In this document: one piece after another, positions 4,418 to 59,190 of the stretch
How positions within the stretch are numbered: position 1 is the first letter of the stretch
How the letters are laid out: every line of letters begins with the position of its first letter
Source of the DNA: an uncultured Candidatus Saccharibacteria bacterium
GTDB lineage: Bacteria; Patescibacteriota; Minisyncoccia; Phycocordibacterales; PALSA-1337
Length of the DNA stretch: 64,000 bases
Direction: 5' to 3'
Assembly: GCA_964412585.1 (NCBI GenBank)
Contig: CAYPPJ010000004.1
Coordinates: 9,825-73,824 of the forward strand
Notes under the pieces: generated by a model
Database searches by the model: none
What the model saw: only the letters and a program-made list of their open reading frames with translations
Told to the model about the DNA's origin: nothing
Position numbers and translations under genes: made by a program

Positions 4418-4858
4418 ATGCTTATTACAGAACAAAAACTTGTCGTACGATCTCGAGGCATCATTATACATGACGAAAAATTATTGACTGTAAAACACGC
4501 CCCCAATAGCGCATTCTACGCTTTACCAGGAGGACATATTGAACATGGTGAAGACCCGAGAGAATGCATGGCACGTGAGCTAGAGGAGGAACTGGGAATT
4601 CGGGGACAGGTTGGTAGACTACTTTATGTAAATACTTTTATGGATAGTGGTATCCACTCTGTAGAATTCTTCTTTGAAATTATCAATTCTGCTGCATATG
4701 CTGGTATGGAACGAGCCACAGGCCTTCTCGGCAAAGAGATCCACGAGGTACGATGGATTGGTCCAACGGAAAACGTACGTATTCTGCCTTCTAAAATTGA
4801 TACGGACCTACGAGATGCCACGCTACTTTCTGACTCGGTCAGGTTCATCAAGGGTTAG
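4418..4858 (+). CDS. NUDIX hydrolase
   Basis: Nudix box GGHIEHGEDPRECMARELEEELGI. Confidence 0.75.
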   Translation: MLITEQKLVVRSRGIIIHDEKLLTVKHAPNSAFYALPGGHIEHGEDPRECMARELEEELGIRGQVGRLLYVNTFMDSGIHSVEFFFEIINSAAYAGMERATGLLGKEIHEVRWIGPTENVRILPSKIDTDLRDATLLSDSVRFIKG

Positions 4859-5826: not shown

Positions 5827-5827
5827 A

Positions 5828-6916
5828 TTAGTGAATTACCGAGTCGTTATTAGTTTTTTGCTCTGTTCGTATATCAGTAAATGATGTGCGGTAAAGCTCA
5901 AGCAAGGTAAACAATACGACGAGAATGACTGGGCCCAGGACAAGGCCTACGATGCCAAAGGTGATCAAACCTCCCAATACTGAAAGCAGAACGAGGAATG
6001 GGTGGATATGGATGCCGCGATTCATAAGTACCGGGCCGAGCATATGATCGATGAGGGTAACTGCGGCATAGCCCCAGATGAGCATGCCAACTGCATACAT
6101 TGGTGTACCAGATATATAGAGATACGCAGCTGCGGGTAGCACCACGAGACTGGTACCAAATCCAGGGATCAATGCTGTAATAGCCGCGAGCGTTCCCCAC
6201 AATGCGGGAGCCGGTATGCCAAATGTGTAAAACGCCAATCCAAGAACGACTCCCTCAAGCAAACTCACCACCATTGTGCCAGCAAACACTGAGCGGACCG
6301 CGCGTTTGAACACTCGAGTGATGTATTCGTCATTACTATCCAAAAGTGGACTCCAGGAAATAAACATCTTTTTGAGGATGGAGCCGTCACGCAAGAAGTA
6401 ATAGAAGGACAAAAGAAACACCAAGGCATATCCAGCTACTTTCGTCATGCTTGAAAAGATACTATCGAGGTTGTCGAAGACCCATTCCAAAGCGGTCTTG
6501 AGGTATTCAGTGATGTTGAATGAGTCAAAAGAATATGCAGGCAGAGCTCCGAAGACCGCTTGCGACATTGACTGTGAAAAGGCATTGAGACTCGTCACTA
6601 CATGCGAACGATTTGTCTCGTCGATAAGCATGCCGTAGAGCAACTGGACTTCAGCGTATACGCTCGCCACAAGGAAAAATAGAGGTACAAGAATGACGAT
6701 GGCGACAATGACTACTGTGGCTATTGCCGCTAGTGACGGTCCAAATCTGCCATGACCGAATACGCGGAGCATCAGACGGAATAGTGGGCGAAGCACGATT
6801 GCTCCAGCCAAAGCGAGAACCAGTGGTGTCAGGAATGGTAAAAAGATGAGCACCGTGGCGACCACTGCCCCCAAGAGAAGTATGAAGAAAAAGTAAGCGG
6901 ATATACGAGGATTCAT
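5828..6916 (-). CDS. AI-2E family (UPF0118/PerM-like) transporter
   Basis: 362-aa polytopic membrane protein whose N-terminal helices and overall pattern fit AI-2E family members. Confidence 0.7.
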   Translation of the reverse strand: MNPRISAYFFFILLLGAVVATVLIFLPFLTPLVLALAGAIVLRPLFRLMLRVFGHGRFGPSLAAIATVVIVAIVILVPLFFLVASVYAEVQLLYGMLIDETNRSHVVTSLNAFSQSMSQAVFGALPAYSFDSFNITEYLKTALEWVFDNLDSIFSSMTKVAGYALVFLLSFYYFLRDGSILKKMFISWSPLLDSNDEYITRVFKRAVRSVFAGTMVVSLLEGVVLGLAFYTFGIPAPALWGTLAAITALIPGFGTSLVVLPAAAYLYISGTPMYAVGMLIWGYAAVTLIDHMLGPVLMNRGIHIHPFLVLLSVLGGLITFGIVGLVLGPVILVVLFTLLELYRTSFTDIRTEQKTNNDSVIH

Positions 6917-6964
6917 TAATACTACATTACCACAACTTTAGAGATATGTGAACTTTCGAGAAGT

Positions 6965-7462
6965 TTATCCAAGCGTATTCACCTCGACAAGCTCTTGTTT
7001 CAGTATTTTTGCAGAATATTCAGCGGTAGAAGGCTTGTCAAAAAGAAAGGTCCCTTTAAATCGCTTACCTTGGAGAAAGAGTGGTATCCAATGAATATCA
7101 TCAGACCACATCTGTTCAAAAGGTATCTTATCTGTCGTGAACCACTGCGGACGCATTTCTTCGCTCTCAGTAGGTTTGCCGCTGAATTGAGTGACGCTAA
7201 AAATGTGTACTTCCAATATTTTTGGGTCATTCTCAAACTCAAAGTTGAGCACGCCACGTTCTTCTAGATCAAGCGGCGTGATACCAACCTCTTCTTTCAT
7301 CTCTCGTATAGCCGCCTGTTCAATAGTCTCTCCGTCGCCCAGTTTACCGCCAAATCCATTCCATCTTCCCTCTCCAAAGCCACGTTTCTTCATGCCAAGA
7401 AGAAGCTTATTATCTTGGTGAACCATGCACAGGGTCAAAGGTTTTATTTTCTTTGGTTCCAT
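6965..7462 (-). CDS. NUDIX hydrolase (MutT-like)
   Basis: Nudix box GGKLGDGETIEQAAIREMKEEVGI. Confidence 0.75.
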   Translation of the reverse strand: MEPKKIKPLTLCMVHQDNKLLLGMKKRGFGEGRWNGFGGKLGDGETIEQAAIREMKEEVGITPLDLEERGVLNFEFENDPKILEVHIFSVTQFSGKPTESEEMRPQWFTTDKIPFEQMWSDDIHWIPLFLQGKRFKGTFLFDKPSTAEYSAKILKQELVEVNTLG

Positions 7463-7473
7463 AGAAAGTGAGG

Positions 7474-8568
7474 CTATTTAGTAAATACACCTTTTGGTAG
7501 CTCTCCATTCAGTATAGGACCTATAATAACTTTGGCAGTCCGCAGTCCGACATCATTGAACGTAATCTCTCCACTGGCACCAGAAGTGTTTGTGTTCTGG
7601 ATATTCTCAAGCCATTTCTTTGCGTCTGAGTCGTACGCTTCCATGAGAGTATTAAATGAATCGTATCCGGTAGATGCTCCAATGCCAGGGTCACTTCCAT
7701 ATTTATTTTTATATGCAGTCACAAATTCGGAAGTATCCTTATCTCCCCCAGTAACCATAGCAATCGACCCATCAAGGACACCAAAGCTCCCAAGCACATC
7801 TTTTATCTCCTTCTCGCCTGTCTGTATATCTTGATCAAATACAAATACAAGAGGCGATTTTGACTGTTTCTGTGCTTCTTTGACTATAAGAGCAGCATGC
7901 TGTGGAACAGTATATAAAACAATAGCGTCAGGTTTATTGGCAAGAATTTTTAACACGTCTGTCCTGACATCCTTGCTCGCCGAGTCGACTGGGAAAGTCA
8001 CCACCTTTCCTTCATATCCCTTCATAAAAGAGTTGGCAAAATTGCTCCATGTCTCAATATTTTGAGCAATAATTACGGCTACATTTTTGTAACCTTTATC
8101 TTTCACATATGCACCAAGCTGGGCTTCTGTAGGGATGCCGCTTGGCCACAATTGAAAAATATTATCTTTTTCTGCAGCCTTGCTTTGCTCAAAGCCTTGA
8201 ATAAAAGGCTTTCCTGACTGGTGTATAAGATCGTACGCAACATCAACAGTGATAGTAGTCATACTAATGAAAGCGTCGACCTTGTCGACCGATGCAAGTT
8301 TCTGGTATGCAGAAAGGCCCCTTTTCGCGTTGAACTCATCATTCTCGACAATAAGATTTACTGAAGGGTTTGGATGTGCTACAACCCATTGTTCTTTGGC
8401 CAATTCAACCCCTTTATTGTAATTCTCACCAACGATCGCATAATCACCTGTCGTCCCTGAAATTACTCCGATTTCAATGATAGATACATTAGTTCTGTTT
8501 CGTACAAAATAGATTCCAACAATTATTATTACAACTCCAATAACTACTAATGCTATTTTTTTATTCAT
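7474..8568 (-). CDS. Membrane-anchored type-I periplasmic-binding-fold protein (branched-chain amino acid ABC substrate-binding-protein-like); no permease or ATPase partner is nearby
   Basis: N-terminal TM anchor MNKKIALVVIGVVIIIVGIYFV followed by a Leu/Ile/Val-binding-protein-like domain of about 340 aa. None of the adjacent genes is an ABC component. Confidence 0.6.
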   Translation of the reverse strand: MNKKIALVVIGVVIIIVGIYFVRNRTNVSIIEIGVISGTTGDYAIVGENYNKGVELAKEQWVVAHPNPSVNLIVENDEFNAKRGLSAYQKLASVDKVDAFISMTTITVDVAYDLIHQSGKPFIQGFEQSKAAEKDNIFQLWPSGIPTEAQLGAYVKDKGYKNVAVIIAQNIETWSNFANSFMKGYEGKVVTFPVDSASKDVRTDVLKILANKPDAIVLYTVPQHAALIVKEAQKQSKSPLVFVFDQDIQTGEKEIKDVLGSFGVLDGSIAMVTGGDKDTSEFVTAYKNKYGSDPGIGASTGYDSFNTLMEAYDSDAKKWLENIQNTNTSGASGEITFNDVGLRTAKVIIGPILNGELPKGVFTK

Positions 8569-9031: not shown

Positions 9032-9190
9032 TTATGTAAACCTATTCCCCTTCCCACACCACGGACACCACCACTGTTTCTTTTTTGCTGGAGCATCACC
9101 TACTGACCACCACTTATCACAGTGGACACAGCGGAAATGACTGAGTTGTTCGATGGATCTCGTACCCTGTTTTTTACTTTTTTTCACCAT
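9032..9190 (-). CDS. Small zinc-ribbon protein (CxxC...CxxC)
   Basis: ORF 9032..9235 carries CVHCDK and CPWCGK motifs. The start was trimmed to an internal Met to reduce overlap with the upstream epimerase gene, but a 17-nt overlap remains. Confidence 0.35.
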   Translation of the reverse strand: MVKKSKKQGTRSIEQLSHFRCVHCDKWWSVGDAPAKKKQWWCPWCGKGNRFT

Positions 9191-10133
9191 GACAGATCTT
9201 GTATGCCACATCACTTCCACAGGGACATGGGCCATTCTTCAATTCTGCCATACCCTGCTCAATAGTGACCATCGGTTTCCAACCAAGTAGTTTCTTGGCT
9301 AGTGAATTATCAGCAAGCGTATCGCGAGGTTCAAGCCGCGCTGGAATATGAGCAACCGGACCACCGATAAGCTCAGCAATGCGTTTGATAGATTGGTTTT
9401 TACCTGCCCCGATATTTATTGCCTCTCCTGCACCGACCTTTGTGCTTTTCATAGCCAACATATTCGCACGGACAACATCATGGACACTGGTGAAATCGCG
9501 AGTCTGCTTACCATCACCGGTGATAGTCATCGGCTTGCCCTGTGAACGAAGCTTCATAAAACGGGCAATAACCAAGGCATACGCACCTTCACTGCTCTGT
9601 CGAGGGCCGTAGACGTTAAAGTAACGCAGAGAAACGGTCTCAATGCCATATATATCGCTCCAAACCTTGCAATAGAGTTCGCCGATATATTTCTGAAGAC
9701 CATAGGGACTCTTTGGATTGGCAGGGGCTGTTTCCTGAAGCGGCATGTGTTTTTGGTCACCATAAGCCGAACTGGATGCTGAATAGATCACACGCTTGAC
9801 CCCTGCCGCCTGAGCAGCAACCAAGACGTTGAGAATACCATTGACGTTTGCCGCATGGGCCTCGAGTGGATGCTCGATTGAAAACTGGACGCGAGGCAGT
9901 GCGGCCAGATGAAAGACAAAAGTTGCCCCACGAAAAATAGGCTTAATAGAAGGCAGGTTGGTAATATCCTTCACATGCAAAGTTGCACGAGGATGAACAT
10001 TGGACTTCTTGCCAGCCGAAAGATTGTCAATAACATGCACGTCAAAACCGTCCTCAATCAATCGACTAGTTAGATGTGAGCCGATGAATCCTGCACCCCC
10101 TGTAACTATGACTTTTATTTTCTTTCTCGACAT
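9174..10133 (-). CDS. NAD-dependent sugar epimerase/dehydratase (GalE-like SDR) carrying a C-terminal SEC-C zinc-binding motif
   Basis: Rossmann motif VTGGAGFIGSHL, catalytic YxxxK (YGLQKYIGELYCK) and a C-terminal GPCPCGSDVAYKICHGEKK tail. Confidence 0.8.
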   Translation of the reverse strand: MSRKKIKVIVTGGAGFIGSHLTSRLIEDGFDVHVIDNLSAGKKSNVHPRATLHVKDITNLPSIKPIFRGATFVFHLAALPRVQFSIEHPLEAHAANVNGILNVLVAAQAAGVKRVIYSASSSAYGDQKHMPLQETAPANPKSPYGLQKYIGELYCKVWSDIYGIETVSLRYFNVYGPRQSSEGAYALVIARFMKLRSQGKPMTITGDGKQTRDFTSVHDVVRANMLAMKSTKVGAGEAINIGAGKNQSIKRIAELIGGPVAHIPARLEPRDTLADNSLAKKLLGWKPMVTIEQGMAELKNGPCPCGSDVAYKICHGEKK

Positions 10134-10144
10134 TGTGTAAAAGA

Positions 10145-12778
10145 TTACTTACCAACACCATGACACTTCTTGTATTTTTTACCACTTCCGCATGGGCAGG
10201 GGTCATTTCTACCAACTTCAGGCTCTTTTGAGATACTTGACGAGGCCTTGGCGGAACCATCCCCCGCACCAATGATCTGAGCATTTTCTTTTACTTCTTT
10301 GAGATTTTTTGGCTGATTGTCTGTCGGTATGCCATTTACCATCGGTACAATGTGAGGCCAAACTTTCATGACCTGTGCCTGCATAGCTGTATTCATTTCT
10401 TTGAAAAGACGGAGACCCTCCTTTTTGTATTCAACCAATGGATCTCGTTGACCATAGGCACGCAGGTTGACGCTCGAACGCGTATAATCCATGACCTCGA
10501 GATGCTCGACCCAATACATATCGATAGCTTGCAAAAGTACAACACGAACAGCATTGAAAAAGTTATCGCGGCCAAATTTATCAACTTTTTCTTGTATAGG
10601 TGCGCTAAAATCAACAGGGGCAAATTCAATCGCCGGCCTCGCATGTGCCAATCTTACAGATTCGAATGCATCATTACGCTGTGAGGAAGGCGACCCACTT
10701 AATATAGCTTTAAGCTCATGTTCAACATCATCAATGTTCCCGAGCAACAGTTTCCTGCGACGTGCGTAGACACTCTTTCTCTGTGTATTGATAACATCGT
10801 CAAACTCCAGAACGTGTTTGCGTGAATCGAAGTTGAATCCCTCAATCTTTTCCTGCGCACTTTCGAGAGAGCGGGAAATGAGTTTGTGTTCGATCGGCTC
10901 GTCTTCAGCCACACCGAGTTTGCCCATCATAGACTTCATCATGTCCGAAGCGAAGACACGCATCAGAGTATCCTCCATAGATACGAAGAACTGCGTCTCA
11001 CCTGGATCTCCTTGGCGGCCAGAACGACCACGGAGCTGGTTGTCGATACGGCGTGCTTCGTGGCGTTCAGTTCCGAGGACGAATAAACCACCAACCGACT
11101 TTATTTCTTCGTAAAGTTCTGGGGTATTCGGGTTGCCACCGAGCTTGATATCGACACCGCGACCCGCCATGTTGGTAGCTATAGTGACAGCTCCCTTTTT
11201 TCCTGCTTGGGCGATAATCTCACCTTCACGCTCGTGGTTCTTGGCATTGAGCATCTGGTGAGGTACACCTTCTGCCTTCAAAAATTGTGAGAGTAACTCG
11301 TTTTTTTCAATCGAGACAGTGCCAATAAGAACAGGTTGCCCTTTTGCATGCAGCTCTTTTACTTTACGCGAGAGAGCCTTGAATTTACCCAACTCCGTTT
11401 GGAAAATTTGGTCATTACGGTCGAGACGGACTGGCTGTCGATTGGTAGGCACCACGCAGACTTCAAGACCATAGACTTTGAAAAACTCCTCTGCTGAAGT
11501 AGCAGCTGTACCTGTCATACCAGAAATCTTTGGGTACATACGGAAAAAGTTCTGGAACGTGATAGAGGCGTAGGTGCGAGACTCTTGCTGGACACTGACT
11601 CCTTCCTTTGCCTCAATAGCCTGGTGCAGACCATCGGACCAGCGGCGGCCTGGCTGCATACGACCGGTAAATTCATCGACAATAACAATCTGATTGTCCT
11701 TCACGACATATTCCTTGTCCCTCTGATAAATGGCCTGCGCCTTGATGGCAGTCTCCAAATGATGAACAGACTTGATGCCCTTGTCAGTATAAATATTATC
11801 AACACCAAGCATTTTTTCTGCCTTGGTGATACCGTCTGAGGTAAGTGAGATCGATTTGAACTTTTCATCGACGGTATAATCCTGGTCTTTAACAAAAGAA
11901 AGGACCATTGATGCAAACTGCTTGTAGGTCGTTTCAGCATCCCTCGTCGGAGCAGAAATAATAAGTGGTGTACGCGCCTCATCGATAAGAATAGAGTCTA
12001 TCTCGTCGACGATGGCATAGTTTGGCTCGCGTTGGCGCAAGCGATCTGGCGTGTATTCGAGGTTGTCGCGAAGATAATCGAAACCAAACTCATTGTTTGT
12101 GCCATAGGTAATATCTGCATTGTATGCTTCCTTGCGTGTTACAGGACGAAGAAACTCATGGACCACCTTGAAAGCGCCTGTCTCATCGCGTTCTTTATCA
12201 GTCGCATCTGCGGAAATACCTTCGGGAGCCTTTTCTTTGTGAGTTGAATCATACAAATAACTCGCCTCGTTATTGAGCACGCCAACAGTAAGTCCAAGAA
12301 ATGAATAAATCTGACCCATCCATGCCGCATCACGACGTGACAAGTAATCGTTGACTGTGACCACGTGCACACCTTTTCCAGTCAGTGCATTGAGATACGC
12401 AGGAAGGGTCGCCACGAGAGTCTTTCCTTCACCAGTCCTCATCTCGGCAATAGCACCAGAATTGAGCGCCATACCACCAAGAAGCTGTACGTCAAAGTGG
12501 CGCTGACCGAGAGTTCGACGAGATGCTTCGCGAACAACCGCGAATGCCTCAGGAAGAATCTCCTGTAACTTCTCATCCATTTTCTTTCGTGCATCTTCAC
12601 CAGGTCTCAAATCTCCAACCTCTAGTTTCTTTTTAAATTCATCAGTTTTTGCACGCAGTTCGACATCCGACAATGATTTGATTGCCGGCTCAAAAGCGTT
12701 TATCTTGGCCACGAAAGGCTCAAATTCTTTGACGCTTTTGGTGTTGGAGCGATTGAAAAGCTTGGATAAAAATGCCAT
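10145..12778 (-). CDS. secA: Preprotein translocase ATPase SecA
   Basis: 878 aa with SecA DEAD-motor motifs and a C-terminal [14 protein letters not shown] zinc finger. The start was trimmed to [11 protein letters not shown], the canonical SecA N-terminus. Confidence 0.92.
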
Positions 12779-12810
12779 ACGTAGAGGGCACTTTATCACA
12801 GTTTAGGACA

Positions 12811-20104: not shown

Positions 20105-20950
20105 TTAGCTGTTTTTGCCAAGTCTACCAGTATATTTTGCACGCGTCAGCTTTTCTTCAGGCAACAAATCGAGACTGCCGGTACCCAGTGCCGTCACATA
20201 TCGATCTCTCCACTCCACCAACTCTTTGAATACATGAGGCTCATCGGCAATACTGTGTGTCGTGATCGGCTTGAGACCTTTGCCGACGGTGTGTCCGATC
20301 TGGGGCGTATCGCGATCAAGCGTAAAATGCTTCTCAATATACTTTACACCCATGCCAAGAGAGAGCATGGCCGCAGATGCGCCCAGCACATGGTCAGAAT
20401 ATCCCACATGAGGTGTCTGCTCTTTGAGCCATGCAAGTTTACCGAGATTCGCCTTTTCCAACGGACACGGGTACACGGACACGCAATGCATGATCGTAAA
20501 TTCGCCTTTTTTAAGTATGTTGAGCGCTTTCTTTATTTCATCCTCAGTCGTCATGCCGGTCGAAGCAATAACCTCATCAAAATTATCGCGAAGTTGTTTC
20601 AAAAATGTGAAATGTTTGAGATCTGTACTCGCGACCTTGATTGATGTGAGTCCAAGCTTCTTGAGAAATGGGATGCGCGCAGCATCATAACACGTGGTCA
20701 TGAATTTGACGCCAGCTTTTTCACATTCTTTTTTGAGAATTATATGAGCTTCGTCTGAAAGTTCGAGAGAAGCGTAACGCTTTTTATCAGGATCTGAATC
20801 ATCGACATTTTTGCTCTGCCATGACTGAAACTTCACAATATCAACACCTGCATCCTTTGCAGCCCAAATCATCTTTTTCGCCAGCTCAATATCACCGTTA
20901 TGTGACGAGGCGATTTCAGCGATGATTTTCGGGGTATATCGTGCACTCAT
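20105..20950 (-). CDS. NeuB-family nonulosonate (sialic-acid-like) synthase, short form without the C-terminal SAF domain
   Basis: IIAEIASSHNGDIELAKKMIWAAKDAGVDIVKFQ TIM-barrel signature; 281 aa. Confidence 0.7.
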   Translation of the reverse strand: MSARYTPKIIAEIASSHNGDIELAKKMIWAAKDAGVDIVKFQSWQSKNVDDSDPDKKRYASLELSDEAHIILKKECEKAGVKFMTTCYDAARIPFLKKLGLTSIKVASTDLKHFTFLKQLRDNFDEVIASTGMTTEDEIKKALNILKKGEFTIMHCVSVYPCPLEKANLGKLAWLKEQTPHVGYSDHVLGASAAMLSLGMGVKYIEKHFTLDRDTPQIGHTVGKGLKPITTHSIADEPHVFKELVEWRDRYVTALGTGSLDLLPEEKLTRAKYTGRLGKNS

Positions 20951-26929: not shown

Positions 26930-27988
26930 ATGCTAGCTTTAGGACAGACTCACTCCTTGAGTCACGATTTCACCCACAACCCAAGGAAACACATGAAGAT
27001 CATTAACATCGCCGGCCGAGCTGTCGGCCCTGGTTATCCCTGCTTCATCATTGCAGAGATTGGCATCAACCATAACGGCGACCTCAACGTTGCCAAAAAG
27101 CTCATTGACGCGGCCGCAGAGGCCGGCGCCGATGCAGTCAAGTTCCAGACTCGCACGGTTGAGGTTGTGTACACGCCAGAAGAACTGGCAAAGGCACGCG
27201 CAGTCCCTCGTAGCGTACTCGAAAATGGAATTCGCCGGGGGGTTCTCCCTCCAAGCGCAGTCGGGCGACTCACCGAGTCCAACTTCGAAGCCTCGACAAA
27301 CGGCGACCTCAAGCGGATTCTCGAGTTCACAGTTGACGAGTACCACGAGATCAGTCGCCACTGCAAACTGCGGGGGGTAATCTGGTTGACCTCGTGCTGG
27401 GACACCCAAGCACTCGAACGGATGCTCCCCTTCAACCTTCCCTGTCACAAGATCGCCTCGGCCTGTAACGAAGATGACGCACTGCTCATCGCTGCGCGTC
27501 AGACTGACAAGCCGGTCATCCTCTCGACAGGGATGACGGACCTCGACGGTGTAAGTGCGGCGGCTAATTTCCTCGACCTCGAGAAGCTCATCATCCTGCA
27601 CTGCACCAGTGTGTACCCCAAAGGTACGGAGCACGGGGACGAGTTGCTCTCGATGGTCAATCTCAATGGCATCGAGACCTTGGCCCGCATATTCGATGTG
27701 CCCATCGGCTTCTCCAGCCACTTCAGCGGCATCATGCCGGTGTATGCGGCGGTCGCCATGGGTGCATGCATGATCGAAGTCCACGTCACGCTCGAACGCG
27801 GGATGTACGGATCAGATCAGGCAAGCTCATTGGAACCGGCAGAGTTTGGCCGCCTCTTCAAGGCGACCAAAGAGCTTCACACCGCCAAGGGTAACGGTCG
27901 GATTGTCATCTACCCCGGCGAAGAAGAAGTCGCAAAGAAACTGCGGCGCGTGCGTCGGAAACAAAAGTCTGACGCTAGCCCGGCATAA
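26930..27988 (+). CDS. NeuB-family nonulosonate synthase, full length with a SAF-like C-terminal domain; markedly GC-rich compared with its surroundings
   Basis: PCFIIAEIGINHNGDLNVAKKLIDAAAEAGADAVKFQTR; 352 aa. Local GC is visibly near 60%. Confidence 0.75.
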   Translation: MLALGQTHSLSHDFTHNPRKHMKIINIAGRAVGPGYPCFIIAEIGINHNGDLNVAKKLIDAAAEAGADAVKFQTRTVEVVYTPEELAKARAVPRSVLENGIRRGVLPPSAVGRLTESNFEASTNGDLKRILEFTVDEYHEISRHCKLRGVIWLTSCWDTQALERMLPFNLPCHKIASACNEDDALLIAARQTDKPVILSTGMTDLDGVSAAANFLDLEKLIILHCTSVYPKGTEHGDELLSMVNLNGIETLARIFDVPIGFSSHFSGIMPVYAAVAMGACMIEVHVTLERGMYGSDQASSLEPAEFGRLFKATKELHTAKGNGRIVIYPGEEEVAKKLRRVRRKQKSDASPA

Positions 27989-52254: not shown

Positions 52255-53454
52255 TTAGACCACGTCCTTGAAAAGAGCCAGCATCTGGGATGAAATATTT
52301 TTCCAATCATAACGCGCCACAACCATTTCCTGTGCATTTTTGACGATATAATCGCGTGACTCCTTATCCTTGATTAATTTTTCAACCTTTTGCGCGACCG
52401 ATTGTGGGTTGTTCACTTCACAAAAAAGTCCCGTTTGGCCATCTACAAGAAAATCAGGAATACCACCAACGGGTGTGGCTATTACTGGAATACCTGCTGC
52501 CATTGCTTCCAGAAATGAATTGCCCAACCCTTCGGATAATGAAGGACGCACAAAGATGTCAGCAACATGAAGATATGGAGGCAATTCTTTTTGAGGTATA
52601 TAGCCGATGAATGTCACGCGATCTTCAATCTTCAATTGTGCGACCAGCGCCTTGAGCTCGTTCTCCAGGTGGCCACTTCCGATACTGACAAACTTCACGT
52701 TCTTTGGAAGAAGGGTCAAAGACTTCAGGATATCAGCCACGGCATTTTTCAGTACCAGTCGGCCGGTGGTTATCAACAAAATATCTCCCTCTTGTTTATT
52801 GAGTGAACGTTTCAACTCAGATGCCTCTGCGACTGAAATTTCTTCGGCAAAAAATCGAACATCAACACCATTTGGCGTGACCACAATCGGACACGTTGCA
52901 CCCAAGCTTTTGGCCCAATCAGCAAGATACGTCGAAATAGTTTGAATATAGTCAGAAACCTTAAACAATTTTTTGAAAAATGGATAAGTAATCCCAACAC
53001 GCTTCCGAATATGAGCGAACGGATCCCCTTCCTGCAGTGTCAAAATAAGTTTCACCTCGCGATGCATGAGTTTGAAAAATAACGCCGGGCCACTCGCATA
53101 ATTTGCCATGATACACCACGTCGCATGATACTTTCTTGTGGCATGAAGCTGCAATGCTTTGAGTAAAGCAAGCGGCATAAAAAGATATTTGAGTGCATAC
53201 AACAGTGGCGAACGCGTACTGCCCTTCCAACGCGGACCAACTCGATATACGTTGATATTGCCAACGCGCTCGAATTTCAAGGCCTCGGTACGCATCGTAA
53301 TCATGTCAAAATCCACTTCTTCAGGAGAAATGCGCCTGGTGATTTCTTCAACCGCAACCTCGGCACCACCGACAAAACGGTGGTAATACATGAGTGAAAA
53401 GATGAGGATGCGACGCGGCTTTTCCGGAGTGGTCATACCTTCATACTTCCACAT
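52255..53454 (-). CDS. Glycosyltransferase family 4
   Basis: SLSEGLGNSFLEAMAAGIPVIAT GT1 signature. Confidence 0.75.
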   Translation of the reverse strand: MWKYEGMTTPEKPRRILIFSLMYYHRFVGGAEVAVEEITRRISPEEVDFDMITMRTEALKFERVGNINVYRVGPRWKGSTRSPLLYALKYLFMPLALLKALQLHATRKYHATWCIMANYASGPALFFKLMHREVKLILTLQEGDPFAHIRKRVGITYPFFKKLFKVSDYIQTISTYLADWAKSLGATCPIVVTPNGVDVRFFAEEISVAEASELKRSLNKQEGDILLITTGRLVLKNAVADILKSLTLLPKNVKFVSIGSGHLENELKALVAQLKIEDRVTFIGYIPQKELPPYLHVADIFVRPSLSEGLGNSFLEAMAAGIPVIATPVGGIPDFLVDGQTGLFCEVNNPQSVAQKVEKLIKDKESRDYIVKNAQEMVVARYDWKNISSQMLALFKDVV

Positions 53455-53456
53455 AT

Positions 53457-55430
53457 TTACTCGACTTTCAACACCTGTTTGAGGACGTCCTCAGGAACTT
53501 CTGCAGGCTTTTGTTGTGATGGTTGATTTGGTTGTTGAGCCGGCTGAGAAGCTGGTACGTGTGGTTTTGGTTGAAGTGGAGGTGGCGCCGTCGGCTTAAC
53601 CTGAACTGGATCTACTTTCGCAATCGGTTTTAAATTCTTAAGCGAAGAAAGGGACTGGAAACCATCATCTGGCGGCAAATTCGCAGCCGCAGGAGCTACA
53701 GGCGTTTTCGCTGGCGTAGAAGGTGTAGAAGTTGCCTTTGGTGCCACGGCACTCGCCTGGGCTTTAGATTTACCCAGCGCAGCGGCCAGAGCATTCTTGA
53801 GATCATTTACATTCTGCGGCGAGGGAATCTTCGGATCTTGCTTTGTTGCCAGTGGCTTTGGGGCCAAGGTCGAAAGTGAAACAGGTTTTACCGGTTGTGG
53901 AGCAGGAGCAGATGCAGGAAGAATAGGCGCAGAAACAACTGGTGCAGGTTTCGCAATCAAGGCGGGCGCAGGTCTTGGATTTGCGGGAGCTGGCTGTGGT
54001 GTCGAACTGGATACAGGAGGTACAGCTGGCGCGGGTTTTGCCGAGCTCGCTGCCACCATATCAGATGCCGAAAGACGTGGCGGCGTTGCGGGTGCAGGGG
54101 GCGCCACGGCCGTCTTCTTTGCAGGCACGGACGGTTCATGGAATTTGACGATCTCAATCTCGACCTGTTCACGCGGTCGCGCAAACTGGGCTCGCGAAGA
54201 GTCGATAATCTCTTTGACATACGATGTATCTGGATGCGGAATCGGGCCAAGCGTACGCGCAGAAAATGGCGCCGATCCGAGTCCATCAATCATGAGTTTG
54301 AGGTAAATCTGCGCAAACCCGAGATTGACCAGATCTTCCATGGTGAATGTTGGCGCAAACTCTTTTTCCAACAACTCCGCATCAGTAGCTCCCACGCGGA
54401 ACGTGATCATTGTGCCAACGTTACCGAAAACAGCCGGACGCACCACTTCGTCCATTTGCTCTACATATTGGTGTGCAATCGTAAGGTTCAATTTGTATTT
54501 ACGAGCCTCCGAGAGAATATCGGCAAACGATGCATTAGCAAAGTTTTGGAATTCATCCACAAAGAGATAAAAGTTCGGCAACATCTGCATGACGCGATCA
54601 GAGACATCAGCACGAGACATGGCAGCTAGATACATCTTAGTCACCAAGAGACCGCCAAGCAATTTCATATTCTCATCACCAATCCTTCCCTTTGAAAGGT
54701 TTATGATGATAATTTTTCGGCTATCCATAGCTTCACGGAAATCAAAAGATGATACCGGCTGACCAATCATGTTGCGGATCAGTGGATTTGCAGTAAATTG
54801 ACCAACCTTGTTTTGAATAGACGGCACAGCTTCAGCCGCCATACGCTCAGTATAGTTCGCAAATTCTTTTACCCAAAATGATTTGACCGACGGATCGGTG
54901 ATATGCGAAACAATCTCTTTACGATACTCCTTGTCTGACAACATGCGATTCACCCCCAGCAGTGTAGTATTCGGAGCTTCGAGCAATGCCAACAGTGTGT
55001 TGGTCAAAATATATTCCATGCGCGCTGACCAGGCATCCACCCATATCTTTTTGAAGGTGCTCATCAATCCAGAGACGACAAGGTGGCGCTTGGTCGGATC
55101 AACACTTTCAAGGACGTTAAATGAAATAGGAAAATCCACATCGAATGGCGCAATGTGAATAACGTCTTTGATGCGTTCTTGTGGAACGTATTCGAGCAGA
55201 AGATCGGCCGTTTTGCCGTGAGGATCGATGAAGGCCATACCTTCACCATTTTGAATATCTTGCACAGCCATATTCTCAAGCAGAGTCGACTTTCCCATAC
55301 CCGTCTTTCCGATAACGTAGACGTGTTTGGTGCGGTCCTTGGCCTTGATGCCGAACTTCATCCGCTTGTTGCGGGCATCAGTTTCGGCAAAATATGTTAT
55401 GCGATTCTCATCGTTGGGAACGGGGATCAT
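53457..55430 (-). CDS. TraD/VirD4/DUF87-type (FtsK-HerA superfamily) P-loop ATPase, apparently cytoplasmic, with a long Pro/Ala-rich low-complexity C-terminal tail
   Basis: Walker A VIGKTGMGKST, Walker B LFVDEFQNFA and a TraG-D_C-like segment (EARKYKLNLTIAHQY...MITFRVGATDAE). No N-terminal TM helix. The C-terminal roughly 250 aa are P/A/S/T-rich. Confidence 0.65.
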   Translation of the reverse strand: MIPVPNDENRITYFAETDARNKRMKFGIKAKDRTKHVYVIGKTGMGKSTLLENMAVQDIQNGEGMAFIDPHGKTADLLLEYVPQERIKDVIHIAPFDVDFPISFNVLESVDPTKRHLVVSGLMSTFKKIWVDAWSARMEYILTNTLLALLEAPNTTLLGVNRMLSDKEYRKEIVSHITDPSVKSFWVKEFANYTERMAAEAVPSIQNKVGQFTANPLIRNMIGQPVSSFDFREAMDSRKIIIINLSKGRIGDENMKLLGGLLVTKMYLAAMSRADVSDRVMQMLPNFYLFVDEFQNFANASFADILSEARKYKLNLTIAHQYVEQMDEVVRPAVFGNVGTMITFRVGATDAELLEKEFAPTFTMEDLVNLGFAQIYLKLMIDGLGSAPFSARTLGPIPHPDTSYVKEIIDSSRAQFARPREQVEIEIVKFHEPSVPAKKTAVAPPAPATPPRLSASDMVAASSAKPAPAVPPVSSSTPQPAPANPRPAPALIAKPAPVVSAPILPASAPAPQPVKPVSLSTLAPKPLATKQDPKIPSPQNVNDLKNALAAALGKSKAQASAVAPKATSTPSTPAKTPVAPAAANLPPDDGFQSLSSLKNLKPIAKVDPVQVKPTAPPPLQPKPHVPASQPAQQPNQPSQQKPAEVPEDVLKQVLKVE

Positions 55431-55438
55431 ACCCCACG

Positions 55439-55470
55439 ATTATATCATGCCTACAGATGATTTTAATAGA
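55439..55470 (-). promoter_or_regulatory. Extended -10 promoter (TGATATAAT) 8 nt upstream of the ATPase start codon, giving a leaderless or near-leaderless transcript; a TTAAAA -35-like hexamer lies 16 nt upstream
   Basis: Motif read directly from the sequence. Confidence 0.3.
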
Positions 55471-55505
55471 TAAAAAGAACACCTCCTGCCTTGCGGCCGG
55501 AGGTG
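55469..55505 (-). terminator. Candidate intrinsic terminator CACCTCC-(12-nt loop)-GGAGGTG followed by a U-rich tract on the minus strand
   Basis: 7-bp stem; follows the stop of the 55536..55988 gene. Confidence 0.4.
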
Positions 55506-55535
55506 GTGGGAGCCCAAAGAATGGGCCCAGACTGA

Positions 55536-55988
55536 TTATTTCGTGTGCGGCTTGGTCCGTTCTGGGTCGAGCCGAAGGTTCATCGCGGCATCGTGATCGG
55601 CGCCGAACGAATGGGTCAAGGTCCGAGTGGCGTTCGTGCGCTGTTCACCCAGACTTTCACGGAGCTTCTTCTCATCATCCGTCAGGAAGTTCAAGGGAAC
55701 TGCCATCAGTTCGTCCGGATGAGCCTTGAAGAGCTTGAACCGACGCTCGAGGGTGGCGTCATCCAAGCCCGTCCACCGACGGTTGAACAGTTCGTGACGT
55801 TTTTCTTGTTCAACTTGCCACGCCGGCTTTCCATTTTTCATTCCGAGGATGGCCGCCAGATTTGACGCACCATGAACTCGTCCCGCTGCCTGTGCTTGTA
55901 CCATTTTTCTTGTGTGTGTTGACCGAGTTTGCAACACGACCTCGAAAACTTTTTTATTTGAGGTATCGTGCTGGGACACTGCACTCAA
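55536..55988 (-). CDS. Hypothetical protein, GC-rich (compositionally foreign)
   Basis: 150-aa ORF with no recognisable motif. GC is clearly above the flanking DNA. Confidence 0.45.
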   Translation of the reverse strand: MSAVSQHDTSNKKVFEVVLQTRSTHTRKMVQAQAAGRVHGASNLAAILGMKNGKPAWQVEQEKRHELFNRRWTGLDDATLERRFKLFKAHPDELMAVPLNFLTDDEKKLRESLGEQRTNATRTLTHSFGADHDAAMNLRLDPERTKPHTK

Positions 55989-56092
55989 GGAGGAAAATCA
56001 GCAACACGAGTCGCTGACGAGAGCTATGTCCGGTATAAAATACTACCACTTATACCAAAAAGCGCAAGTAGTATCAATAACTGTAAACAGCT

Positions 56093-56204
56093 AGCACACA
56101 GGGGCGCACACCTCCTCTTTCTTGAAGTGTAGAATGGTTTCACGTACTCGGCACACCACATCGTTTACACGCAAAGAAAGAAGAGGTGTGCGCCCCTGTG
56201 TGCT
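56093..56204. repeat. Long hairpin element B: 31-bp inverted arms with one mismatch (AGCACACAGGGGCGCACACCTCCTCTTTCTT / AAGAAAGAAGAGGTGTGCGCCCCTGTGTGCT) around a 51-nt centre containing ACTCG-GCACACCACATCGTTTA
   Basis: Read directly from the sequence; begins 6 nt after the stop of the glycoside-hydrolase-like gene. Confidence 0.6.
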
Positions 56205-56209
56205 TTGTT

Positions 56210-57499
56210 TTATTTCTTCAACAATGCATTCTTGTCATACACACTCGCTGCATTCCACAGCATCCAGCTCGTTAGTCCAACATCATATGTTGCCTGAATC
56301 TGTTTGCGGACCATTTCTGGCGTATATATCGCGCCCAGGTCAAACGCCTGCAACCATGGTCTCAACTTATTTTTGTCATACGTCTTTTTTGTATACAGCT
56401 GAGGACTTGTTGACGCGATCGGTTCTTCTGCGAGCAACAAAGATTTTGTCGTTGTTGAAAGTGCTTTTTTAACCGCACTCGACATCGACGAATAAATAAT
56501 CTCGTACGGATGCTGGGCAGGTTTTGCATAGCCATCAAAGCCTGGACCAAAATGAGATGGATAGACCATTGGTGCCACATAATCAAATGAATCAAGTGCG
56601 TACTCGAGTATCTGTCCGATACCCAAGTCGCCTTCCGCACTAGTCGTCAGGCCGAATAGGTCAGCTGATATTGGGATGCCAGAGCCAACAAACTCATGGT
56701 GCATAAATGCGTAAAAATCTTTGATGATCTCCGTTCGTTGACGCCCTTCGGCCCAGCTGTATGAAATGTCCTCCAAATTTCCATCTGATGGAAAACGAAT
56801 GTAATCGAAGTTAAGCTCATCAAATCCGGCAGCATACGCTTCACGACCAATACGCGCAGCATATTCCCACACCGGCTTGGCTCCCGCATCAAGCCATTTG
56901 ACTCCTTTGAAATCTTTCCAAACCCCCCCTTCTTTTGTTTTGACTGCCCACTCAGGATGCACATTCATCATGTATGAATCTTGAAATACTGAGATACGCC
57001 CGATAACATAGACGTTCTTTTTGTGGAGCTTATCAATAAACTCTTTGATATCCGGAATACGATTTTCTGATGCTCCAATCTTCGCTAGTTCTGGATCCTC
57101 AACGTTGAAACTGATGCGTCCTGTGTAATCTTTGACATCTATCACCACAGCATTTACCTCGGTAGTATCGACAAGATCAAACAAGTGAGGACGAAACTTT
57201 GAACTTCCCGCCGCCCAGCTCGACATGTAGATACCTTTGAGCGGTTCAGGCGTATTGACATGAGTAACCACAAACGCTGGCGGCGTTGTCGAAGCAGTCG
57301 CCAAAGTCGAAGAGGCGTTGAGGACAGTTGCCGTTGTTGATGTGGCAGCCAACGACCCATTGAGTCCGATTGAGGAGTATGAAATAGAGCCCATTGGCAA
57401 AAACCATGCAACAAAGAAGCCTGCAACTACTATGACAAAAGCGGCGAAAATAATCGTCGTCGCCCGAGTCGCGCCGATCTCACGCCACAACTCTCTCAT
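56210..57499 (-). CDS. Signal-anchored putative glycoside hydrolase (DUF4015 / GH-like TIM barrel)
   Basis: N-terminal TM anchor followed by GIYMSSWAAGSSKFRPHLFDLVDTTEVNAVVIDVKDYTGRISFNV, which resembles the putative-glycosyl-hydrolase DUF4015 family. Confidence 0.5.
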   Translation of the reverse strand: MRELWREIGATRATTIIFAAFVIVVAGFFVAWFLPMGSISYSSIGLNGSLAATSTTATVLNASSTLATASTTPPAFVVTHVNTPEPLKGIYMSSWAAGSSKFRPHLFDLVDTTEVNAVVIDVKDYTGRISFNVEDPELAKIGASENRIPDIKEFIDKLHKKNVYVIGRISVFQDSYMMNVHPEWAVKTKEGGVWKDFKGVKWLDAGAKPVWEYAARIGREAYAAGFDELNFDYIRFPSDGNLEDISYSWAEGRQRTEIIKDFYAFMHHEFVGSGIPISADLFGLTTSAEGDLGIGQILEYALDSFDYVAPMVYPSHFGPGFDGYAKPAQHPYEIIYSSMSSAVKKALSTTTKSLLLAEEPIASTSPQLYTKKTYDKNKLRPWLQAFDLGAIYTPEMVRKQIQATYDVGLTSWMLWNAASVYDKNALLKK

Positions 57500-57810
57500 G
57501 AGGACATTGAATCAGAGCTGCTAATCGTGCTTGTCGTTCCTGATGACGTCAAAGCTGGAGCAGTATCGGCGGTATTCATCGATTCGGACGTTGAAACCTT
57601 CTGTCCCGAAGGTTTTGGTGATTTGTGTTCAGTGTACGTCACCCGTTCCGATGCAACCGGTTTTGCTGGTGGTTTAAATTTGAATGCAATGATAATAATC
57701 AGCACACCAACGACCAACCCAAAAATTTTATCCCACTCTGGCGGAAATCCAAGAAACAAAAATACCATAACCCAGACACCCAGTATGATAAGAAATTGGC
57801 GTTTTGACAT
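57496..57810 (-). CDS. Small membrane protein with a Ser/Thr-rich C-terminal tail
   Basis: ORF 57496..58044 trimmed to MSKRQFLIILGVWVMVFLFLGF. It makes an ATGA overlap with the downstream hydrolase gene. Confidence 0.45.
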   Translation of the reverse strand: MSKRQFLIILGVWVMVFLFLGFPPEWDKIFGLVVGVLIIIIAFKFKPPAKPVASERVTYTEHKSPKPSGQKVSTSESMNTADTAPALTSSGTTSTISSSDSMSS

Positions 57811-58302
57811 GTGGCTAGTATAGCGCAAAGTGCTATGATTGTGCCAGAAGTCACATCTGCCATGAAAACATCGAGCTCCCTTCTCATTGAGCCTGATGTC
57901 ATCCCCTTCTATAGAACGGAGGCGGTAGTCAGGCTGTACAAACGGCAAATCTGGTACGCTGGATTTTGCTGGAAAATACGCTTTGGCGAAAAATCGATTC
58001 GACTCTGGATCGACCCGTACATCAAATTCGGACTCGGCCATCAAGCTATTCCAGGCTATCCGGACACCTGTCTATTCAGTGAAAAAGATTGGGTCCTTCC
58101 AGATAGTCTGAGAACCAACGAGCGTCCTTTTGAACTAGCACACTGCGTTCCTGTTCACACGGAGCATCAGGACCCCAGAGTGCTCATCTGCTCATTCACC
58201 GACGGAACACTGATCATATCCCAGCGATACGATGATATGCGTATGGCTCGTGATCAATTCCACATTCACCCGATCGACGTCTTTGATCGTCACACACGTT
58301 AG
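57811..58302 (+). CDS. Hypothetical protein (start uncertain; internal Mets at 57835 and 57862)
   Basis: 163-aa ORF convergent with rsmI. The ATG abuts the divergent gene's start, so a later Met is more likely. Confidence 0.3.
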   Translation: MASIAQSAMIVPEVTSAMKTSSSLLIEPDVIPFYRTEAVVRLYKRQIWYAGFCWKIRFGEKSIRLWIDPYIKFGLGHQAIPGYPDTCLFSEKDWVLPDSLRTNERPFELAHCVPVHTEHQDPRVLICSFTDGTLIISQRYDDMRMARDQFHIHPIDVFDRHTR

Positions 58303-58351
58303 CCGCGGCATCGTCTGGCGAGCGCGGCCATTTTATATAGCTCTCAACAAT

Positions 58352-59065
58352 CTATTTCGATACCATAACAACAAACTCTCCTTTTATTTTTTCGGGATGT
58401 TCTTCAAAATAATCAGCAACTTCCTTTGCAGTTCCCTGCACAACCTCTTCAAATATTTTGGTCAGTTCGCGACAAATAGTAACTTGCTTTGGCGCCGAGT
58501 TATCCGAATTGCCACTCAGATGTTCCTGGAGACTGACCAGTGTTTTCATAATACGGTGTGGCGATTCGTAAAATACCATTGTCCGTTCTGCAGCAGCAAT
58601 CTCTTTGAATAATGTCTCGCGTCCCTTTTTATGTGGTAAAAAACCAAGAAACGTAAAGTCGGCACAGGATACGCCCGCGATCGAAAGTGCCGAAGTAAGC
58701 GCTGATGGACCAGGAATAGCTTCAATCTTAATTTCTTTATTCCTAATCTCATTTGCCAATTCATGACGGACCCTCTTCACGAGCTCCGAACCAGGATCGG
58801 AAATTCCGGGTGTGCCAGCATCGGAAACCAGTGCTAGATTTTTTCCTTCTTTCAAAGAGACAATAATTTCATCGACACGCGACAGTGTGCTGTGTGCATG
58901 ATATGAAATGGTCTTTTTGTTGAGTGAATGATGATCCAAAAGTTTTTTTGTGACGCGTGTATCCTCACAGAGAATGATGTCAGCAGCAGCAAGTACGTTC
59001 AATGCGCGCAGTGTGATATCTTCGAGGTTACCTATAGGCGTCGCAATAATGGAGAGAGTAGACAT
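58352..59065 (-). CDS. rsmI: 16S rRNA (cytidine1402-2-prime-O)-methyltransferase RsmI
   Basis: LSIIATPIGNLEDITLRALNVLAAADIILCEDTR tetrapyrrole-methylase-fold signature. Start trimmed to MSTLSII. Confidence 0.85.
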   Translation of the reverse strand: MSTLSIIATPIGNLEDITLRALNVLAAADIILCEDTRVTKKLLDHHSLNKKTISYHAHSTLSRVDEIIVSLKEGKNLALVSDAGTPGISDPGSELVKRVRHELANEIRNKEIKIEAIPGPSALTSALSIAGVSCADFTFLGFLPHKKGRETLFKEIAAAERTMVFYESPHRIMKTLVSLQEHLSGNSDNSAPKQVTICRELTKIFEEVVQGTAKEVADYFEEHPEKIKGEFVVMVSK

Positions 59066-59190
59066 GACTGCAGTGTATACGGAGATGAGAAAAATGCAAG
59101 AATCTACTCCGCATGACGTCCACAATTTCGTAATATCTCAAGCGTTCGGTCAATTAGAATAATCTTGTTTTATCTGCTACATTAAACCTC

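Follow-up and report, generated by a model that had tools for sequence, protein, structure and literature searches.

The 64,000-nucleotide stretch analysed here (hereafter the window) comes from contig CAYPPJ010000004.1 (positions 9,825 to 73,824, forward strand) of an uncultured Candidatus Saccharibacteria bacterium, and our subject is a minus-strand gene in it for a soluble ATPase that resembles type IV coupling proteins (T4CPs), built as a P-loop motor followed by a long disordered tail. When the 51 open reading frames (ORFs) of the window were scanned against Pfam, they resolved into a surface-glycan island and housekeeping functions (GatB, Obg, SecA, MurB, a MraY/WecA-like enzyme and an RsmI-like methylase), and none carried a type IV secretion system (T4SS), pilus, relaxase or integrase domain; neither TraM nor a relaxase was found in the window, and Rfam and tRNA scans of it returned nothing. 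This agrees with an initial annotation, which had described a coupling-protein-family ATPase outside any T4SS gene cluster. Its further statement that no T4SS or conjugation gene is present holds for the window, but Taylorbacteria genomes are scored VirB4-positive in the part of Quinonero-Coronel et al., 2025 (PMC12102498) used here (Table S1), so that a T4SS is present elsewhere in genomes of this lineage.

The ATPase ORF opens with an ATG codon and an in-frame TAA lies 12 nt 5' of it, so the N-terminus cannot be extended. The near-leaderless extended -10 promoter proposed earlier was recovered as a promoter-like consensus match, from which transcription would begin at a putative start near position 55430, giving a near-leaderless transcript. 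The terminator-like hairpin that closes the upstream unit folds at -31.3 kcal/mol (z = -4.3, equalled by 0 of 200 shuffles). Because hairpin and promoter meet at this point, the gene is "first" only as the head of a new transcription unit: the claim that it opens the minus-strand run is right in that sense and wrong in the other, as minus-strand genes continue upstream of it at 55536-59125. At its 3' end, the junction sequence agrees with the glycosyltransferase gene described 2 nt downstream of the stop codon; there is no terminator between the ATPase and this GT4 gene and, judging from the junction, the two are probably co-transcribed in this genome.

The Walker A and B motifs reported earlier were confirmed in the sequence, and the coupling-protein-like C-terminal signature by Pfam matches that pass the gathering cut-offs, to TrwB_AAD_bind (29.3 bits, cut-off 20.5; aa 30-346) and TraG-D_C (23.6 bits, cut-off 22; aa 287-345). 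DUF87 scored just above its cut-off (24.2 bits vs 23.2), FtsK_SpoIIIE fell under its own (12.9 bits vs 24) and covered the P-loop alone, and PF02534 (T4SS-DNA_transf) gave no match in the ATPase. Among NCBIfam models, SXT_TraD reached 44.9 against a cut-off of 366 and the CD1115 VirD4-like model 34.9 against 250. Across 127 homologs G41, G44, G46, K47, D292, E293, R310, K311, Y312 and Q321 are invariant; the RKY...HQ stretch (aa 310-321) aligns with the GRKAG...LQ stretch of TrwB, and R310 and Q321 are candidates for the arginine finger and sensor glutamine described in the TrwB literature. No membrane segment was detected, as Kyte-Doolittle hydropathy over 19-aa windows peaks at 1.26 and nowhere reaches 1.6, which, with the N-terminus blocked by the TAA, bears out the earlier statement that a membrane anchor is absent.

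An AlphaFold2 (AF2) model built on an alignment of 127 sequences (35-95% identity) has a predicted local distance difference test score (pLDDT) mostly above 90 over aa 10-435, including the helices of aa 112-236; an earlier model from 40 near-identical sequences was poor (pLDDT 60), and its Foldseek ranking was replaced by that of the 127-sequence model. Against the PDB, Foldseek aligned the model with TrwB over 410-450 columns (E ~1e-12, target-normalised TM-score 0.60-0.67, root-mean-square deviation 4-6 Å) and, in full-length alignments, with DotL (TM-score 0.57) and Cagbeta (0.53). HerA followed in second place with an E-value of 1.6e-13 but a TM-score of only 0.40-0.49, defence-type HerA complexes appeared at ~1e-10, and no FtsK chain was among the 50 PDB matches listed, a ranking that gives the separation of VirD4, HerA and FtsK for which the initial annotation had called. 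When the family sequence profile was compared with solved structures, the sole significant matches were TrwB (9e-6) and DotL (4.5e-4); the best HerA match, a HerA-NurA helicase chain at 0.17, was not significant. Since TrwB superposes best and the profile matches are limited to TrwB and DotL, the predicted structure places the ATPase in the coupling-protein-like branch of the HerA/FtsK superfamily, with the all-alpha insertion kept and the membrane domain absent. It nevertheless lies outside the canonical T4CP family, because neither the membrane domain nor a linked T4SS or relaxase gene was found. By analogy with T4CPs, it probably works as an ATP-driven ring motor.

The source organism is one of the Patescibacteria, close to Taylorbacteria. 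The protein has more than 8000 homologs; the best of them come from Parcubacteria/Taylorbacteria metagenome-assembled genomes (MAGs), where their name is 'type IV secretion system DNA-binding domain-containing protein'. At least 580 relatives came from a scan in which each GTDB species was represented by a single genome (best 97% identity, in a Taylorbacteria MAG), and an exhaustive search of 1.84 billion cluster representatives gave 22,033, of which 5,951 fell below 1e-30. According to the sections of PMC12102498 drawn on here, VirD4-type T4CP homologs occur as 5,713 genes in 2,918 of 3,035 genomes of the Patescibacteria, or Candidate Phyla Radiation (CPR), that is in 96% of genomes, with about two copies per genome, against 80% for VirB4; only 148 of the 5,713 lie near virB4, relaxases are scarce (109 in the 3,035 genomes), and the authors state that exaptation of these homologs 'cannot be ruled out'. 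As far as those sections describe it, the window gene belongs to this near-universal orphan T4CP family of CPR, which is thus already on record.

To place the gene among its neighbours, ORFs were called and clustered within this analysis at 74 related loci, and identities were taken over 73 of them. The core of the motor is conserved at a median identity of 85.6% to the window protein; in the same genomes the medians of six syntenic neighbours are 48.5% (DUF4015), 52.2% (an ATP-grasp protein), 58.3% (a 258-aa protein), 62.8% (a 220-aa protein), 67.0% (the RsmI-like methylase) and 75.3% (the MraY/WecA-like enzyme), and the motor core was the more conserved in all paired comparisons. Purifying selection on the motor core is therefore very strong. 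A search of 2.9 million viral contigs found no close relative; the family-level matches there (10 loci) are all solo motors, mostly from high-GC, non-CPR organisms. Because the core is more conserved than every neighbour, the loci are chromosomal and of housekeeping character and close viral relatives are absent, the gene is intact, strongly constrained and no remnant of a mobile element. On this point the initial annotation was right, and the embedding of homologs in integrative conjugative elements, which it had named as the sign of a decayed mobile-element gene, was looked for among the relatives and not found; the ORF is intact and all 74 loci are chromosomal and of housekeeping type.

The window protein differs from its wider family in what precedes the motor. 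Below about 56% identity, most homologs start their core at residues 300-460, and the N-terminal extension of these fused forms consists of a transmembrane (TM) helix and a DUF8128 domain (PF26449). Of 367 complete-core proteins fetched, 204 are short forms and 160 fused forms. The median C-terminal tail is 212 aa in short forms, which lack the extension, vs 27 aa in fused forms, and extension and long tail are almost never found together in one protein. DUF8128 also occurs as a separate gene (390-445 aa) followed by the motor gene; such split pairs were found in Portnoybacteria-type and other Parcubacteria (loci L088, L092, L093, L094, L095, L109, L110 and L111), and the best 120 matches to a split-type DUF8128 protein are all stand-alone. 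Over the full core, the window protein is 35-56% identical to fused forms and 55-64% to split forms. In a neighbor-joining (NJ) tree of motor cores, drawn with no support values, the window clade is tight and short-branched and sits within the split-form group, with the fused forms as sister. The motor is thus fused in most CPR, split in many Parcubacteria and alone in the window's clade; and because DUF8128 and motor are fused or adjacent across relatives, we take them to be one two-part unit.

The linkage between the two modules is labile. Within one DUF8128 subgroup whose members are 84-88% identical, the motor is adjacent at three loci and not at the three others (L096, L107, L108), where the DUF8128 gene stands unlinked. 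This unlinked subgroup could not be placed in the window's own lineage: its source names read simply Parcubacteria/Paceibacterota, and L096 shares no orthologs with the window lineage and has 36% GC vs 46%; a metagenome scan gave 8 loci, with no informative overlap with genes of the window lineage. A comparison of DUF8128 with the PDB by sequence returned nothing. We also observed that a protein of ~355 aa, combining sigma70 region 4 with a HARE-HTH domain, is encoded directly before DUF8128, whether the latter is fused, split or unlinked (L088 5584-6678, L089 6857-7981, L092-L096, L107-L111), and thus accompanies DUF8128 more steadily than the motor does. In the window and at the 80 solo-motor loci no homolog of this protein was found.

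The tail of the window protein measures 217 aa, somewhat less than the ~250 aa first estimated. Its description as PAPA-type low-complexity sequence was correct as to the Pro/Ala-rich composition but not as to the lack of features: pLDDT stays below 50 except in two predicted helices, and these coincide with two conserved islands, the C-terminal helix spanning aa 647-654. As a whole the tail is highly variable (identity between relatives ~14%), its length and composition shifting from Pro/Ala-rich near the window protein to Lys/Glu-rich in more distant relatives, and no DNA tandem repeats were found in the tail-coding stretch. Of the 204 short forms 119 have the strict terminal motif, among them 110 of the closest 120, against 0 of the 160 fused forms; recognisable variants extend down to ~52% core identity. 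The peptide is amphipathic (muH 0.53) with a net charge of -1, properties more in keeping with docking to a protein than with a helix that binds membranes. Split motors that adjoin DUF8128 also carry tails, of 207-253 aa, made of a Zn ribbon, a disordered stretch and another terminal motif, ...EGE[VI][VI]KF; because these motors are tailed while standing next to DUF8128, a tail with a peptide tracks the motor being a separate polypeptide and not the loss of DUF8128. From these features of the sequence we infer that the tail would tether the motor to a partner. Beside the first motif, a second class of terminal peptide ('...QPGQxIKL' / '...EGE[VI][VI]KF') was observed at L110 (1912-3840) and L111 (11296-13362) and in proteins P0168, P0198, P0204 and P0239, and in split motors it comes after a CxxC...CxxC zinc ribbon (PF23477); the two motifs suggest two types of receptor. 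The coordinates of all these features are collected in Table 1.

Table 1. Positions, in window coordinates, of the ATPase gene, its parts and the elements that flank it.
Feature	Coordinates	Strand	Evidence
Whole gene, soluble T4CP-like ATPase (solo motor + tail)	53457..55430	-	657-aa ORF; Pfam; homologs
Motor core, aa 1-440: RecA-like nucleotide-binding domain + all-alpha insertion	54111..55430	-	AF2, Foldseek, identity
Walker A GKTGMGKST, aa 41-49	55284..55310	-	Sequence; alignment to TrwB P-loop
All-alpha insertion, ~aa 112-236, counterpart of T4CP all-alpha domain	54723..55097	-	AF2 helices; alignments
Walker B YLFVDE, aa 288-293	54552..54569	-	Alignment to TrwB LFIDE
RKYKLNLTIAHQ, aa 310-321, candidate arginine finger + sensor glutamine	54468..54503	-	Alignment to TrwB GRKAGLRVVAGLQ
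Disordered Pro/Ala-rich tail, aa 441-657 (217 aa)	53460..54110	-	P 22.6%, A 18.9%; pLDDT
Conserved mid-tail helix, aa 538-557, PQNVNDLKNALAAALGKSKA	53760..53819	-	Alignment island; predicted helix, pLDDT ~90
Conserved C-terminal peptide EVPEDVLKQVLKVE, aa 644-657, candidate docking motif	53460..53501	-	Motif counts
Promoter-like site TTAAAA-16-TG-TATAAT	55439..55466	-	Consensus match only; -10 ends 8 nt before ATG
Intrinsic-terminator-like hairpin + U-tract, end of upstream unit	55471..55505	-	Fold
GT4 glycosyltransferase, 2 nt 3' of ATPase stop	52255..53454	-	Pfam Glycos_transf_1, 1.9e-42; junction sequence

The gene neighbourhood was compared across the 74 related loci and with the split and fused relatives, as the initial annotation had proposed, and the recurrent partner that emerged is DUF8128 in the split and fused relatives, not a glycosyltransferase cluster. 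A co-directional block is conserved 5' of the ATPase (RsmI-like methylase, a small protein with two TM segments, a DUF4015 glycosidase-like protein and a variable spacer), the motor stays in stable synteny with the RsmI-like, DUF4015 and MraY/WecA-like genes, and no mating-pair formation (MPF) or relaxase gene is among the recurrent neighbours at the 74 loci. The 3' side is less constant: same-strand GT4 genes follow the ATPase in ~44 of the 74 close relatives, and two unrelated gene families, mostly on the opposite strand, in ~20 others. More distant relatives lie in other housekeeping surroundings, either IleRS, a holin-like protein, SecG, SBP, L9, RuvX, the gene itself and PGK, or SecD, SecF, the sigma70_r4/HARE-HTH gene, the gene or genes in question and EF-P, and no adjacent glycosyltransferase cluster was found at the loci of split or fused relatives. 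As the GT4 adjacency is partial among close relatives and absent from split and fused ones, the glycosyltransferase link is a lineage-specific synteny, and a functional link to glycan assembly, as suggested for an ATPase at the head of a glycan operon, is not supported.

Several features of the surroundings merit description in their own right. The glycan island (window 14644-52337) holds two genes for NeuB-family nonulosonic-acid synthases (20105-20950 and 26930-27988), two CMP-sugar cytidylyltransferases, two UDP-GlcNAc 2-epimerases, GT2 and GT4 enzymes, a flippase-like protein, an 802-aa Wzy_C/TPR protein, GtrA, several methyltransferases and a GLF-like flavoprotein, which is much sialic-acid-like sugar chemistry for a reduced CPR genome. 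Between DUF4015 and the ATPase lies a spacer (55431-56209) that is 779 nt long here and hypervariable between loci (11 nt to several kb, mostly 400-800 nt). It has a promoter-like site of its own (TTGATA-17-TG-TATAAG, ~56045-56075, located by eye) and its own terminator, and is a possible hotspot of small, rapidly evolving genes or of non-coding RNA. Spacer ORFs are non-homologous between loci, and that of the window (150 aa, 55536-55988, minus strand) matches one homolog only (L043); the idea that it is a conserved partner or a remnant of DUF8128 was discarded, given this lack of homology and a nil DUF8128 signal. Directly after the DUF4015 stop codon lies a 128-nt hairpin (56085-56212, minus strand) with a stem of ~31 bp and a minimum free energy of -75.9 kcal/mol (z = -10.2, equalled by 0 of 200 shuffles); its length greatly exceeds that of a normal terminator, and it may be an element like a miniature inverted-repeat transposable element (MITE) or a repetitive extragenic palindrome (REP), or else a structured RNA. 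Elsewhere in the window, an NAD-dependent epimerase/dehydratase (9174-10133, minus strand) ends in a SEC-C zinc motif (3e-05), an unusual place for it, and the same motif ends the adjacent SecA protein (10145-12799).

Hints to the substrate come from distant relatives in phages and plasmids. Searches of PHROGs and PADLOC gave only generic P-loop families or families of unknown function, with a match at 1.5e-57 to phrog_5156, which spans DUF8128 and the motor. In the SPO1-like Bacillus phage CampHawk, gp129 (CampHawk_129) is a 906-aa DUF8128-motor protein (DUF8128 hidden Markov model (HMM), 5.6e-20); its gene and the start of a Replic_Relax (PF13814) gene, whose annotation is 'replication initiation by nicking', overlap, and a ParM-like gene lies five genes upstream. 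In Bacillus phage G, gp156 carries DUF8128 (2.9e-37) and the motor and follows gp155, a P-loop_TraG (VirB4-type) ATPase. These two loci (L090, CampHawk, 4747-8284; L091, phage G, 2196-6338) thus present soluble DUF8128-motor proteins within a conjugation-like gene pair in large lytic phages. A Foldseek search of BFVD returned the same phage family and nothing else. Other relatives at or below 40% identity reside on plasmids of Streptomyces, Bacillus, haloarchaea and Sulfolobus and in Bacillus phages; the Sulfitobacter and Rhodococcus plasmid contexts are mobile-element clutter with no informative partner. By analogy, the phage and plasmid contexts (23-40% identity) are suggestive of DNA handling. 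A 64%-identical solo motor was also met in a contig filed as viral (L097, IMG/VR UViG_3300009666_001272), flanked on one side by a class II tRNA synthetase and a Na/Pi transporter and on the other by a serine recombinase, a DNA methylase, a ResIII helicase and a reverse transcriptase; rather than a virus, this contig is probably a piece of cellular DNA into which an island has been inserted.

We propose, with confidence about evenly balanced, that the gene encodes the stand-alone motor half of a chromosomal, near-universal two-module system of Patescibacteria, DUF8128 plus motor, docked by its tail to a partner elsewhere. One module would be DUF8128, usually placed after a membrane helix; the other, which belongs to the HerA/FtsK superfamily, would be a P-loop motor resembling that of coupling proteins. 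This motor may form a ring like TrwB and HerA and would use ATP to move a polymer, for which DNA is the likeliest candidate because the phage members adjoin a relaxase-like nickase or a VirB4-type ATPase. The tail would tether the motor flexibly, with its terminal peptide docking onto a partner whose gene lies elsewhere in the genome, possibly a membrane-anchored DUF8128 protein and/or the T4SS of the lineage, and the downstream glycosyltransferases would share the transcript through genome compaction, not function. A further version, which we offer tentatively and hold to be possible rather than probable, sees a T4SS-independent housekeeping translocase in which a membrane DUF8128 protein and a motor derived from conjugation or phage systems move a polymer across or at the membrane, the Taylorbacteria-type motor being free and held by its tail. 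What appears new is the arrangement of a solo motor, a disordered tail and a terminal peptide, derived from fused or split DUF8128-motor systems; we found no description of it, and a full-text literature search for 'DUF8128' returned no paper.

Several points weigh against the proposal of a tail-docked motor half. A six-frame search with a 152-sequence HMM, covering the 64-kb window and, in 80 related genomes, the sequence up to 10 kb from the motor, detected no DUF8128: the window and loci L001-L080 stayed at E >1, and positive controls scored 1e-93 to 1e-184; DUF8128 may thus have been lost in the window's clade. The docking role of the tail is based on correlation and conservation and not on a predicted complex, the substrate is inferred solely from distant phage contexts (23-28% identity), and the NJ tree that puts the window clade among the split forms has no support values. 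Finally, the t4cp homolog of Southlakia is non-essential in the part of PMC12102498 used here, which sits uneasily beside the strong conservation seen among the relatives, although fitness in nature and in co-culture differ.

Other explanations were weighed against the same evidence. The protein could be the true T4CP of a chromosomal Patescibacteria T4SS (VirB4, VirB6, VirB3, TrsD and VirB2 pilins) encoded elsewhere, with the tail replacing the TM domain. T4CPs are indeed the solved structures nearest to it in both sequence profile and fold, Taylorbacteria are listed as VirB4-positive (Table S1 of PMC12102498), the same source mentions t4cp genes distant from virB4 in other systems, and the T4SS cluster of Southlakia has no recognisable coupling protein, which leaves that role vacant (PMC10633639). 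Yet the genetic partner that is conserved, by fusion or adjacency, is DUF8128 and no T4SS gene; and in the figures quoted from PMC12102498, T4CP homologs outnumber VirB4 (96% vs 80% of CPR genomes, at about two copies), seldom lie near virB4 (148 of 5,713) and occur in genomes near-devoid of relaxases (109 in 3,035), while in Southlakia the homolog is dispensable and the T4SS essential. We therefore judge a canonical coupling role unlikely. We doubt even more that DUF8128 has been lost altogether and that the protein is a free cytoplasmic HerA-like motor for DNA processing or repair, with a tail that recruits soluble partners in the manner of the acidic tip of SSB. The failure to find DUF8128 in the window or at the 80 related loci would be explained, HerA is matched by Foldseek (1.6e-13), DUF87 passes its Pfam cut-off and the terminal peptide, acidic and amphipathic, is unlike typical membrane-targeting helices; but TM-scores prefer TrwB to HerA, neither a NurA-type nor another nuclease partner is in conserved synteny, and split motors beside DUF8128 carry the same kind of tail, which is then no sign of DUF8128 loss.

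The remaining explanations carry little weight. That the ATPase acts in assembly or delivery of surface glycans as head of a glycan operon, the idea of the initial annotation, could appeal to the large glycan island, to the GT4 gene 2 nt after the stop codon with no intervening terminator, to the same-strand GT4 gene that comes next in ~44 of 74 close relatives and to the DUF4015 glycosidase-like gene upstream at 54 of the 74 loci. We give it very little credence, since unrelated genes, mostly on the opposite strand, follow the ATPase in ~20 close relatives, split and fused relatives have no adjacent glycosyltransferase cluster, a hypervariable spacer and a terminator separate DUF4015 from the ATPase, the ATPase evolves far more slowly than these neighbours and we know of no glycan pathway with a T4CP-type motor. 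Membership of an anti-phage defence system, of HerA type or like mad8 of MADS, is scarcely probable: the matches to PADLOC mad8 (2.3e-15), to HerA models (weak) and to defence HerA complexes in Foldseek (~1e-10) are confined to the generic P-loop core, conserved synteny shows no effector partner (SIR2, DUF4297, nuclease or methylase), and typical defence genes display the reverse of the near-universality, fixed place on the chromosome and very slow evolution of this gene. We attach almost no probability to a decaying remnant of an integrative conjugative element or plasmid, to which relatives at or below 40% identity on plasmids and Bacillus phages and the 64%-identical copy abutting a recombinase/methylase/reverse transcriptase island might point, because the catalytic residues of this intact ORF are invariant, core identity across related genomes is 86% and exceeds that of every syntenic neighbour, the housekeeping synteny is stable, no integrase, relaxase or MPF gene is in the window and no close relative was found on viral contigs.

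CPR make up a large share of bacterial diversity, and how they take material from their hosts is an open question; in the sections of PMC12102498 drawn on here, their T4SS is essential in the one species tested, Southlakia, and a coupling-type ATPase is present in 96% of their genomes with no assigned role. As a family assignment the present result is ordinary, but it gives concrete handles on a near-universal CPR protein: the orphan family gains an anatomy, with a DUF8128 partner module, a tail-peptide tether, a conservation above that of neighbouring essential-type genes and relatives in phages. "Possibly exapted" is thereby turned into testable hypotheses, on which protein receives the terminal peptide and on whether DNA is what the motor moves, and genetically tractable Saccharibacteria carry a t4cp homolog. 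If the more tentative reading of a T4SS-independent translocase is true, its free, tail-held motor would be an unreported way to build a coupling-type ATPase, and the movement of DNA or another polymer could serve, for example, nucleotide scavenging or DNA exchange with hosts. The locus also illustrates that in compact CPR genomes gene order beside glycosyltransferases is no proof of a functional linkage.

Among known systems, the T4CP homologues of Patescibacteria in PMC12102498 are the same family, chromosomal, near-universal and away from virB4 and relaxase genes; in the sections of that paper drawn on here they are counted by HMM, and a description of the DUF8128 module, the architectures, the tails and peptides or the level of conservation was not found there. 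Like TrwB, VirD4, TraD, DotL and Cagbeta, the window protein has a P-loop domain with an all-alpha insertion, and its Walker A and B, Arg and Gln motifs align with theirs; unlike them it has no N-terminal TM domain and no linked T4SS or relaxase genes, and the relationship is remote (14-15% identity in Foldseek alignments, scores far below the NCBIfam TraD/VirD4 cut-offs). TraD of the F plasmid has at its C-terminus a flexible extension, the last residues of which are an acidic peptide that docks onto TraM. The window protein shares this plan of a coupling-type motor followed by a flexible extension with a terminal peptide, but TraD also possesses a membrane domain, and TraM, its partner, belongs to the relaxosome. 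HerA (DUF87) hexameric DNA translocases belong to the same superfamily but superpose more poorly (TM-score 0.40-0.49), and their partners NurA, SIR2, DUF4297 or another effector are not in synteny with the window ATPase; from FtsK/SpoIIIE it differs by an FtsK_SpoIIIE score below cut-off and by having no TM segment, and the idea that it replaces FtsK was dropped, FtsK having been reported in Saccharibacteria TM7x. The DUF8128-fused motors (phrog_5156; phage G gp156, CampHawk gp129) have a homologous motor core in the reverse layout, with DUF8128 at the N-terminus (in CPR also a TM helix) and almost no tail. As for the tail itself, SSB combines a folded core, a disordered linker and a conserved acidic tip, and FtsK has a Pro/Gln linker; the likeness to the window tail, a compositionally biased and variable linker leading to a short interaction element, is an analogy of design and not homology.

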